Counted from the stretch's first letter, positions 11,385 through 16,285 are shown. The stretch is DNA of 64,000 nt from Burkholderiales bacterium (GCA_033582675.1 JAVQZY010000019.1:68139-132138); one strand, 5' to 3'. A program made the numbers and translations. Notes: generated from the letters alone by a model not told the origin.

Positions 11385-11784
11385 TCAATCGAGGCGCTTT
11401 GCGCGCAGCGCCTTGATCTCGGCGCGCTCGCGTTTCTCGGCAAGCCGCCGCTCGCGCGCAGCGCGCGAAGGCCGCGTCGGGCGGCGAACCTTCGGCGGCT
11501 GTCGCCGCCGCGGCGACGAGCGCGTGCAGCCGCGCGAGCGCCTCCTCGCGGTTTCGCTCGAGGCTGCGGTGGCGCTCTGCGCGGATCACGATGACGCCCG
11601 CGCGGCTCACGCGCGCATCGCGCCGGGCGAGGAGCCGCGCCTTCACCGGCTCGGGAAGCGAGGAGGCGCGGATGTCGAAGCGAAGCTGAACGGCGTTCGC
11701 CACCTTGTTCACGTTCTGGCCGCCGGGGCCGCGCGCGCGCACCGCGGCGAACTCGATCTCCTGCTCGGGGATGCGAAGCGTCAC
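11385..11784 (-). CDS. arfB: Alternative ribosome-rescue factor ArfB (peptidyl-tRNA hydrolase, RF-1 domain); one frameshift near 11505 as read
   Basis: VTLRIPEQEIEFAAVRARGPGGQNVNKVANAVQLRFDIRASSLPEPVKARLL...VIVIRAERHRSLERNREEALARL contains the GGQ motif. The basic tail QPPKVRRPTRPSRAARERRLAEKRERAEIKALRAKRLD-TGA (stop 11385-11387) lies in a second frame. The GTG start at 11784 overlaps the upstream stop (GTGA). The length is 400 nt. Confidence 0.85.
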
Positions 11785-12998
11785 GCGCTCACCCGGTTGC
11801 GGCCGGATTGCTTCGCGCGGTAGAGCGCCTCGTCCGCCGCCTTCAGCACCCGCTCGGGCTTTCGACCTGCGCTTGCATCCGCCGCGCCGATCGAGACGGT
11901 GACCGAGAGGACTTTTTCGGGTGCGCGCGCACCGCGCAGGCGGCTTCCCTCCTTTTCGTCCTTCGGCCGGTCTTCGCCCCGCACCGCCATGCGGTAGCGC
12001 TCGATTTCGGCGCGGATCGCTTCCAGATGCGGCAACGCCTCCTCGAGCGTGCGCCCGGGGAATAGCACCGCGAATTCTTCGCCGCCGTAGCGATACGCGC
12101 GCCCGCCGCCGCCGATTCCCGCAAGGCGGCTGCCGACCAGCCGCAGCACCTGATCGCCGATGTCGTGGCCGTGGGTGTCGTTGAACTTCTTGAAGTGGTC
12201 CACGTCCACCATCGCGATCGTGTACGCGGGGCCGAGCGCGCGCAGGTCCTCTTCCAGCGCCCGGCGGTTGGGAAGACCGGTGAGCGCATCGCGAAAGGCG
12301 AGCCGGTGCGATTCCTGAAGCACCCCGACGACGATCGCGGCGCCTGCGGCGGAGACGAAGATCGCGGCGGTCGCGGGCGATGCCGCGAACGTGCAGCCGA
12401 TGTAGAAGAGGAGGATCGCGGCGGCGCTCGCCACGTCCACCGGCCGCGCATCGGGCCAGCAGCGCCAGGCGGCGAGCGCAAACGCCGCCCCTGTGAGGAT
12501 GCGGCCCGCAAGCGGCACCGGCGGCCCGCGGAGCAGCCAATGATCGAGCATCGCCTGCCAGGCGGTGCCGGAGACGAGGCTTCGGCCCGAGGCGGCGACC
12601 CAGAGAACGAGGAGCGCCTCCAGCGCGAAGAGCGCGAGCCACCGTCCGCTTCCGTGATAGCGCACGCCGCGCTCGGGGAGCAGGTAGGCCGCAAGGGCAT
12701 TCCCCGGAACGAGGACGACGAGCGCGGCATAGGCGGCTTTCGCCGGCGCCGAGCCCGCGCCCCAGGCCTGCGCGACCTCCCAGCCGGCCCAGGCGGCGAG
12801 GATCGAAAAAGCGAGCACGAACGCGCGCCCGCGGTTGAACCACACGCATACGAGGCACGCCCCGGCGAGCATCGCGTAGGGCCCGAGGGTCGAAAGGCCC
12901 GCGAGCGAAGGCGGAAGGGGCGGGGCGAGCGCCGCCGCGAGCGTCGCCGCCGCAAGGATCGCGGCCGGTGCGGCGAGCGGCCGAAGCGCAGGCGCCAC
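11781..12998 (-). CDS. Membrane-anchored diguanylate cyclase (GGDEF domain)
   Basis: The GTG at 12998 gives 405 aa: about 6 hydrophobic helices, then RDALTGLPNRRALEEDL...VDVDHFKKFNDTHGHDIGDQVL...YRYGGEEFAVLF...SIGAA...ADEALYRAKQSGRNRV. Confidence 0.9.
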   Translation of the reverse strand: MAPALRPLAAPAAILAAATLAAALAPPLPPSLAGLSTLGPYAMLAGACLVCVWFNRGRAFVLAFSILAAWAGWEVAQAWGAGSAPAKAAYAALVVLVPGNALAAYLLPERGVRYHGSGRWLALFALEALLVLWVAASGRSLVSGTAWQAMLDHWLLRGPPVPLAGRILTGAAFALAAWRCWPDARPVDVASAAAILLFYIGCTFAASPATAAIFVSAAGAAIVVGVLQESHRLAFRDALTGLPNRRALEEDLRALGPAYTIAMVDVDHFKKFNDTHGHDIGDQVLRLVGSRLAGIGGGGRAYRYGGEEFAVLFPGRTLEEALPHLEAIRAEIERYRMAVRGEDRPKDEKEGSRLRGARAPEKVLSVTVSIGAADASAGRKPERVLKAADEALYRAKQSGRNRVSA

Positions 12999-13006
12999 GC
13001 GCGCGG

Positions 13007-13755
13007 CTAAAGCCCTGCCTTGCGGGCGAGTTCCGCGCCGTAGAAGCGCTCGCAGAGCATGCGCCGGCGCGTGCGGGAATCGGCCTGCGGCGGCAACGAC
13101 GCCTCGACGAGAAGGCGCGCCGATTCGAACATGTCGGCGCACATCGCGACGCGTTCCTGCGGCGTCAGCTCGGCAAAGCGCCGGCGGACGAACTCGCGGA
13201 ATTCCGGCGTCGGTGTCATCCATGCGCGAGCCTGGCCAGGCAGGTCGGCTACACCCAGTTCTCCGGCCCAGCGCCGGAGGTACTCCGCGTCGGCGCCGGC
13301 GGCGAGCAAGGCGCGTGCATCCCGCAGCTGAAGCTCCGAGCCGGAGTCCTTCGCCCATACGAGCTTCGAGAGGATCAGGTCTTCCTTCGTCACGATCCAC
13401 GCCTGGAACCCGGGCATCGGGACGCGGGTGCGCCGCTCGAACTCGTTGCGCCGAAAGGCATCGTCCTTGCGGACGACGAAGTCCACTTTCACGAGATGGC
13501 CGAGGTGTAGCGCATTGAAAATGCCGCGTTCGCGGGCCGCGCGCGAGGCGTCCTCCGGGAGCAGGTAATAGTCCGGTGCGAACAATTCCGCGACCCGCTG
13601 CGCACCGGCCGGGTCGAGCTCCACGACAAGATCGATGTCCCGGGTCATGCGCGGCGGAGCATAGTACGCAAGCGCCATCGAGCCGGTCAGCATGTAGCGG
13701 ATGCCGGCCTTCTCGAGACGCGCGACCGCGTCCTTGAGTACCTCGATTTCCGCAC

Positions 13756-13759
<4 letters not shown>
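13007..13759 (-). CDS. Pol-beta-fold nucleotidyltransferase-like protein with a helical C-terminal extension
   Basis: The GTG at 13759 overlaps the parC stop (GTGA) and gives 250 aa. IRYMLTGSMALAYYAPPRMTRDIDLVVE fits the hG[GS]x9-13DhDh nucleotidyltransferase motif. The C-terminal ~80 aa (TPTPEFREFVRRRFAELTPQERVAMCADMFESARLL) are unassigned. Confidence 0.6.
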
Positions 13760-16051
<2,292 letters not shown>

Positions 16052-16057
16052 CGGTCG

Positions 16058-16285
16058 TCATCCGAAAAGATCGAGCTGCTTTCCCGCCATCGCCACCGCC
16101 TGCTCGACCGAGCGCTTTGCGCTCGCGAGATCGTCGGCCACGCCCGCGCGCCCGGCCGCCTCCCAGGCGTAGCGGCCTTCGCCCTCGCGCACGACGCGCC
16201 CCAGTTTCGCCTTGCCCTGCCAGAGCACGTGCCCCTTGTAGCCGCGCTCCCACACCGGCTTCGGCGCGCCCCGTTTTCTAGACAT
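16058..16285 (-). CDS. 75-aa protein of unknown function between parE and parC, with a C-terminal QLDLF motif
   Basis: ATG 16285 overlaps the parE stop region by 8 nt, and the stop at 16058 lies 6 nt before the parC ATG. GC3 is high across the ORF and the composition is varied (W, Y, K, H). Sequence: MSRKRGAPKPVWERGYKGHVLWQGKAKLGRVVREGEGRYAWEAAGRAGVADDLASAKRSVEQAVAMAGKQLDLFG. Confidence 0.55.
   Translation of the reverse strand: MSRKRGAPKPVWERGYKGHVLWQGKAKLGRVVREGEGRYAWEAAGRAGVADDLASAKRSVEQAVAMAGKQLDLFG

Follow-up and report, generated by a model that had tools for sequence, protein, structure and literature searches.

What does the short ORF between the two subunit genes of topoisomerase IV (topo IV) encode, and is its product tied to topo IV? 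The window analysed here is a stretch of 64,000 nucleotides from a Burkholderiales bacterium, in which parE, the ORF and parC lie on the minus strand (Table 1). The ORF is translated as MSRKRGAPKPVWERGYKGHVLWQGKAKLGRVVREGEGRYAWEAAGRAGVADDLASAKRSVEQAVAMAGKQLDLFG. A preliminary description of this DNA had placed its start 8 nt inside parE and its stop 6 nt before parC. It had read the QLDLF near the C-terminus as a motif for binding the beta sliding clamp (DnaN), by which a small adaptor might serve topo IV. The geometry and the position of QLDLF at residues 70-74 of the 75-aa ORF agree with that description, to which the strand is added here. So does the gene-like third-position GC content: with 71% GC for the window as a whole, GC3 is 0.84 for the ORF and 0.91 for parE.

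Table 1. Coordinates of the features in and around the small ORF, counted from the first nucleotide of the window.
Feature	Position	Strand	Basis or remark
Small ORF, 75 aa	16058..16285	minus	Unnamed family; ORF list, homologues, dN/dS, synteny
Overlap of ORF and parE, 8 nt (ATGTCTAG)	16278..16285	minus	ORF ATG at 16285, inside the parE 3' end
Spacer between ORF and parC, 6 nt	16052..16057	minus	ORF stop 16058-16060 (TGA); parC ATG at 16051
parE (topoisomerase IV subunit B), 656 aa	16278..18248	minus	TIGR01055 parE_Gneg, 3.9e-203
parC (topoisomerase IV subunit A), split	13756..16051	minus	PF00521, PRK05561
Residues 1-10, Lys/Arg-rich N-terminal tail, predicted disordered	16256..16285	minus	Alignments; pLDDT 62
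Residues 11-68, predicted globular domain, five beta-strands and one helix	16082..16255	minus	AlphaFold2, conservation
Residues 70-74, QLDLF, consensus beta-clamp-binding pentapeptide	16064..16078	minus	One residue before the C-terminus
ParC residues 4-9, QDRDLF, xDLF motif ahead of helix alpha1	16025..16042	minus	~40 nt from QLDLF

Organization of the Operon

The parE product contains the Pfam domains HATPase_c, DNA_gyraseB, Toprim and DNA_gyraseB_C. Neither a terminator-like site on the ORF strand nor a promoter-like site was found between parE and parC, and no Rfam model matched across this interval. An RNA element, an internal terminator or a promoter between the two genes was thus rejected. 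Co-transcription of the small ORF with parE and parC is probable, and the overlaps of start and stop codons suggest translational coupling with its neighbours. These overlaps and short junctions, together with the lack of a terminator, promoter or Rfam match, place the ORF in the operon, probably coupled on both sides. The small gene therefore appears to belong to the topo IV operon. Downstream of parC (11781-13847, minus strand) lies a gene for a GGDEF diguanylate cyclase, as it does in several related loci (L001, L102 and L004).

Conservation, Synteny and Selection

The homology search (E ≤ 0.01) revealed 182 homologues of 72-90 aa with 60-77% identity, from Burkholderiales and Betaproteobacteria MAGs. 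Their names are all absent or "hypothetical". In a scan with one genome per GTDB species, the small ORF was encoded in 149 genomes. Synteny was compared at 86 loci: the best 80 of these 149 species-level genomes, all of which are uncultured Burkholderiales MAGs, and six metagenome loci. The order parE-ORF-parC on one strand is seen in 85 of the 85 loci that span both flanks; the 86th stops at a contig edge before parC. More distant orthologues, at 59%, 58% and 50% identity, show the same gene order. The overlap between the start of the ORF and the end of parE measures 8 nt in 27 loci and 17 nt in 13 others. The gap from the ORF to parC is 9 nt or less, or the two overlap, in 61 of 85 loci. The operon form is carried by MAGs only.

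Across 74 unique orthologues, the median pS is 0.58 and the median pN is 0.22, with dN/dS of ~0.22. This indicates that purifying selection acts on the frame of the ORF. The small protein changes faster than its neighbours; identity among orthologues is 50-77% for the small protein versus ~80-90% for ParE and ParC.

Individual loci show variations. Four (L043, L048, L064 and L077) have an ORF without ATG, GTG or TTG, and its sole candidate start is a CTG overlapping the TGA of parE (C-TGA). A non-canonical start or termination-reinitiation is suggested by these CTG-only ORFs. Midway through the ORF of one orthologue there is an in-frame stop codon (L027, ~470; …GEGR*TWEAAG…), which may be a sequencing error or may mark a pseudogene. 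In one genome, a 503-aa gene sits between the small ORF and parC (L014, 4219-5730). It encodes a hydrophobic N-terminal segment and has no assigned family, and the small ORF there retains its 8-nt overlap with parE.

DNA of 71% GC has many long ORFs in all frames, and the ORF might be spurious or part of a conserved non-coding spacer. The stop in one of the 86 loci and the lack of a canonical start in four are on the side of this reading. It is nevertheless effectively refuted, and its probability is negligible. The dN/dS value, the constant length, the hundreds of homologues including those in unrelated contexts, the confident AlphaFold2 fold and the absence of an Rfam match all stand against it. 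The protein-coding nature proposed in the preliminary description is thus upheld by the two-flank loci, the dN/dS ratio and the 182 homologues. The comparison it had recommended, that of the parE-parC gap in relatives, revealed the ORF in all related loci, with QxxLF kept in the 82 orthologues compared. The small ORF is almost certainly a real gene.

C-Terminal Motif

The tail of 62 of the 82 orthologues reads QLDLF; the others have QMDLF (7), QRDLF (6), QPDLF (4), QLNLF (2) and QFDLF (1). In all 82, the motif is located 1-5 residues from the C-terminus. In 44 more diverse members (31-59% identity), M1, W12, Y39, A56 and Q70 are invariant. Conservation is at least 90% at L73 and F74, with variation at positions 71 and 72. 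The variants in these members include QLSLF, QLPLF, QLTLF, QFSLF, QYDLF, QLRLF and QLGLF. Homologues extended at the C-terminus bear a new QxxLF at the new end, for example QPELF in P0212 and QADLF in P0216. The C-terminal QLxLF is the best-conserved feature beyond the core of the fold.

In E. coli, C-terminal clamp motifs are found in Pol II (QLGLF), Pol IV (QLVLGL) and UmuC (QLNLF). The small protein is like them in having Qxx[LM]F in a flexible terminal tail, with Q, L and F conserved and positions 2 and 3 tolerant. In the clamp-binding motif, the Gln contributes the largest share of the affinity; Leu is required at position 4 and Phe at position 5, position 2 tolerates substitution, and position 3 is free (PMC11139829). 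QLDLF is the strongest consensus clamp-binding peptide, and its overexpression inhibits the growth of E. coli (PMC11139829). The substitution pattern in the orthologues and relatives agrees with this tolerance profile. The sequence thus has the pentapeptide, the flexible terminal site and the conservation, with the known tolerance, of a clamp client. It is likely that the tail functions as a clamp-binding motif. The same pattern in 82 orthologues and 44 relatives substantiates the conservation of QLxLF that the preliminary description had proposed to check.

Predicted Structure and Family Searches

The AlphaFold2 single-chain model was built on an alignment of 69 sequences and has a pLDDT of 84.5 and a pTM of 0.70. 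The predicted strands are residues 11-15, 18-23, 26-33, 39-43 and 46-50, followed by a helix at 53-68. W12, R14, Y16, H19, G29, Y39, A56 and V60 are invariant or near-invariant in the globular domain. Residues 69-75 form a low-confidence flexible tail (pLDDT ~50) after the confident helix. The 75-aa sequence contains no cysteine and has a net charge of about +7.

Searches of Pfam, NCBIfam, PHROGs and PADLOC with the ORF and the 44 diverse relatives gave no matches. The small ORF matched nothing at E ≤ 1 in Pfam and NCBIfam, including the known small topoisomerase regulators. Against PDB sequences, a profile search gave hits to designed helical repeats alone (E 0.75). Foldseek found no significant match in PDB (best E 0.16), and in BFVD it found weak similarity to uncharacterised phage proteins (best E 3.9e-3). 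As neither comparison gave a significant match, the small protein was assigned to no fold family. The globular domain is an undescribed protein family, absent from curated libraries.

Homologues Outside Topoisomerase IV Operons

The profile search against 1.84 billion representative proteins detected 153 clusters at E ≤ 1e-3. Given this number, the family is small. Large proteins of the TPR/CHAT type (P0181, P0189, P0236 and P0247) were discarded since they matched repeatedly, and only to the helix segment. The repeat proteins P0194 and P0201 were removed as spurious for matches limited to the same segment. The fusion partners of distant homologues contain no informative Pfam domain.

Membership of the family extends beyond topo IV loci; its distant members include stand-alone genes and copies borne on plasmids and integrative and conjugative elements (ICEs). 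P0135 is located upstream of an allF/allG/allH cluster, and P0349 is flanked by TonB-ExbBD genes and a DoxX gene. P0272 adjoins nfi, msrA and nrdA. P0133 follows a GGDEF gene near DUF1840, msrA and nrdA, and it overlaps the preceding GGDEF gene by 4 nt (L095).

The screening of plasmids by tblastn revealed copies in cultured bacteria. Plasmids of Burkholderia glumae, B. gladioli and B. cenocepacia encode a 117-aa form with an internal QPDLF. Homologues on Burkholderia plasmids are found at L098 5935-6288 and L223 ~14001-14198. These copies belong to an ICE-type module in the order ParB ... X ... PFL_4669, DUF3158, ssb ... DNA topoisomerase, where X is the homologue. The module also holds DNA methyltransferases, and its topoisomerase gene is ~8 kb downstream. 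The PLSDB gene table, which is incomplete, has no entry for the Burkholderia plasmid homologues. The copy on a Cupriavidus malaysiensis plasmid ends in QLSLF and is near the genes for ParM, H-NS and RepB. The chromid of C. metallidurans CH34 encodes a 107-aa copy, also ending in QLSLF (L099 5908-6231). The Cupriavidus homologues of 107-109 aa, including P0205, have MQLDF at the start in addition to QLSLF at the end. This MQLDF is possibly a second clamp-motif-like peptide, at the N-terminus. A 160-aa protein of the Caulobacter jumbo phages CcrColossus and CcrPW has the beta-domain as its C-terminal part and lacks the motif; in CcrColossus this is gp295 (L100 2228-2710).

As homologues are stand-alone or on plasmids, ICEs and a chromid, the unit of domain plus putative clamp motif predates its place between parE and parC and is more general than that setting. 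Since these homologues are outside topo IV operons, the globular domain need not recognise topo IV. The small protein may be a generic clamp-associated and perhaps DNA-binding (basic) protein of replication, repair or mobile elements, inserted between parE and parC by chance in one Burkholderiales clade, where it would profit from the expression of these genes without contact to topo IV. The distant homologues with domain and QxxLF, stand-alone or in replication/partition modules of plasmids and ICEs, are consistent with this explanation. So are the domain without the motif in the Caulobacter jumbo phages and the faster divergence relative to ParE and ParC. However, the arrangement is present in all 85 two-flank loci and in orthologues down to 50% identity, and most junctions with parC are tight (61 of 85). 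Such an arrangement is hard to keep without a functional tie. The adjoining ParC also bears a similar motif, as described below. A generic protein is an explanation that we consider rather unlikely. Of the topo IV adaptor proposed in the preliminary description, the conserved operon gene with its motif stands, but the family extends beyond topo IV.

N-Terminal Peptide of ParC

In the related loci, the stretch of ParC before helix alpha1 contains T-x-D-[LM]-F (at about residues 5-10) and then an acidic linker. Examples of its start are MDDTQTLDLFTPDNGDE, MDTRTPDLFTPENGDD and MDDRTGDLFVNENGDD, and a further N-terminal peptide of ParC from this clade is MDDTQTLDLFTPD. The distribution of this peptide was analysed in a metagenome sample of ParC loci that is blind to similarity, drawn by a DNA pattern for an 11-residue protein stretch. 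In this sample, [QT]x[DNSGET]LF is present in the N-terminal extension of 19 of 27 ParC proteins of the Burkholderiales type, versus 0.16 expected from shuffles, and in none of 49 ParC/GyrA proteins of other types. The small ORF occurred only in the five loci whose ParC is at least 78% identical to that of the window. ParC of the TxDLF type is encoded without the small gene at L118, L126, L141, L157 and L187.

The profile search gave 120 N-termini of Burkholderiales ParC, which include Herminiimonas, Herbaspirillum, Trinickia, Piscinibacter, Pollutimonas and Quisquiliibacterium. Strict QxxLF is found in 63 of them, mostly from residue 4 (for example, QANLF, QQTLF, QTNLF and QTDLF). Another 32 have other xDLF forms. 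The last 25 are mostly hexapeptide-like, such as QPTLDF and QTTIDF (QxxLDF/QxxIDF) and QLTLMP. A mixture of pentapeptides and hexapeptides is typical of clamp-binding motifs (PMC11139829). Judged by these sequences, ParC across Burkholderiales bears an N-terminal clamp-motif-like peptide, with or without the small gene. This motif may be the more general result.

The tail of the small protein and the N-terminus of ParC have the 9-mer GATCTTTTC (D-L-F) in common, at 16064-16072 and 16025-16033 on the plus strand, respectively. An origin of the tail by duplication of the parC 5' end was rejected because the motif is present in homologues far from parC.

Could the tail instead mimic the N-terminal xDLF arm of ParC and bind topo IV (ParE or ParC) rather than DnaN, as an assembly factor or an inhibitor? 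The two xDLF peptides are ~40 nt apart, both allow L, P or R at the second position, and the gene is inside the topo IV operon. But the clamp consensus fits both motifs: most Burkholderiales ParC have Q at position 1, and the ParC variants, pentapeptide and hexapeptide, match it as well. The motif is also retained where homologues are encoded on mobile elements or otherwise away from topo IV operons. We know of no pocket in topo IV for a peptide of the xDLF type, which counts further against such mimicry. Its probability is low.

In the window, a 1-nt insertion near 14938 divides parC into two ORFs, 14582..16051 and 13756..14901. They match PRK05561 at positions 2-338 and 352-733. The sequence at the insertion is GGGCCTGC in the window versus GGG-CTGC in L007 (JAOAFL010000121), a MAG contig with 97.6% identity in which parC is intact (764 aa). 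The split is likely an assembly error; a real pseudogene is the alternative. Compared with L007, the window also has a compensated pair of indels (+1/-1) at 16036-16042, and it changes the ParC start from MDDRTGDLF (L007) to MDDQDRDLF (window). It deletes the Thr that is otherwise conserved in TxDLF. Either an assembly error or strain variation could account for this pair.

Possible Mechanism

The tail QLDLF-G would insert in the hydrophobic pocket of the DnaN (beta) clamp, as Pol II, Pol IV and UmuC do with the motifs at their C-termini, and the globular domain or the basic tail would grip topo IV or DNA. The small protein would then be a clamp-tethered accessory factor of topo IV. Decatenation would be concentrated on newly replicated DNA, which is marked by the clamps left behind the fork. 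In this scheme, the conserved operon gene, its conserved motif and its predicted fold are observations. We infer the binding to DnaN, any contact made with topo IV, and whether the effect is recruitment or competition.

Since ParC has its own N-terminal clamp-motif-like peptide, the small protein is not required as the sole tether. A tether is not obviously needed, given this peptide and the TxDLF-type ParC without the small gene. The ParC peptide of this clade usually lacks the key Gln (TxDLF). The small protein would therefore provide a second, high-affinity contact to the two pockets of the clamp dimer, or it would tune the contact made by ParC.

The opposite effect on topo IV can also be considered. 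As a competitor or regulator, the small protein would fill the clamp pockets and displace the weaker motif of ParC or other clients, thereby limiting or timing topo IV. QLDLF is the strongest motif and inhibits the growth of E. coli when overexpressed as a peptide (PMC11139829). ParC of this clade usually lacks the Gln, the main contributor to affinity, and homologues on mobile elements could use the same activity. Against this, expression coupled to that of a low-abundance enzyme seems ill suited to the titration of clamps, a simple plug needs no conserved folded domain, and no toxicity or immunity partner is evident. Competition is improbable.

The best reading is that the function of the small protein is tied to topo IV, as a clamp-tethered accessory factor. 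This reading is tentative, at slightly under even confidence, because of the homologues outside the operon and the TxDLF-type ParC without the small gene. A wider proposal is more doubtful. Topo IV of Burkholderiales would be a direct clamp client through the N-terminus of ParC, and one large uncultured clade would have added a dedicated third, operon-encoded mini-subunit with the highest-affinity peptide. The two would jointly tether decatenation to the clamps on newly replicated DNA, an undescribed targeting independent of MukBEF.

Comparison with Known Systems and Implications

Pol II, Pol IV and UmuC are large enzymes, whereas the small protein has 75 aa, no catalytic domain and an undescribed fold family. 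Hda, YabA of B. subtilis and the Caulobacter toxin SocB are small proteins that rely on docking to DnaN by a short motif; Hda is an AAA+ protein with the motif at its N-terminus. The small protein is like these in its putative short-motif docking, but it has no sequence or family match to them. To our knowledge, none of the three is encoded in a topoisomerase operon.

Small size is also seen in regulators that act on type IIA topoisomerases. The gyrase inhibitor YacG of E. coli is a Cys4 zinc finger. NstA of Caulobacter is a small topoisomerase regulator with a redox-sensitive disulphide (PMC4470285). The 75-aa protein is similar to both in size, but it has no cysteine and no family match to them. 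The genes for NstA and YacG are not located between subunit genes, and neither protein has a clamp motif. In sequence and fold, the small protein is unrelated to NstA and YacG, to Hda, YabA and SocB, and to Pol II, Pol IV and UmuC. The comparison with YacG, NstA, GyrI/SbmC and the pentapeptide-repeat proteins Qnr/MfpA revealed no family match.

What is known of the delivery of topo IV to sister DNAs, newly replicated and still intertwined, comes mainly from E. coli, where it proceeds via MukB, which binds ParC's C-terminal domain. MukBEF is, as far as we know, limited to some Gammaproteobacteria. In E. coli, topo IV is recruited by the interaction of MukB and ParC (PMC3950513, PMC5061553). The problem is the same here, to bring topo IV to new DNA, but the candidate contact is different: clamp-type peptides on the mini-protein and on the N-terminus of ParC.

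The literature searched yielded no link between topo IV or ParC and the clamp, and no gene between parE and parC; the preliminary description likewise knew of no such intergenic gene. The word topoisomerase is absent from the 2024 review of the clamp (PMC11139829). What is new is the protein family and the genomic setting of this clamp-motif client, putative as read from its sequence.

A new family of small proteins, with members on plasmids and ICEs, is thereby defined beyond the curated libraries. The N-terminal motif of ParC is directly testable in cultured species of Burkholderiales. For bacteria without MukBEF, the clamp peptides offer a concrete hypothesis on the delivery of topo IV. If this is true, a type II topoisomerase joins the clamp interactome, and the clamp would link replication to decatenation.
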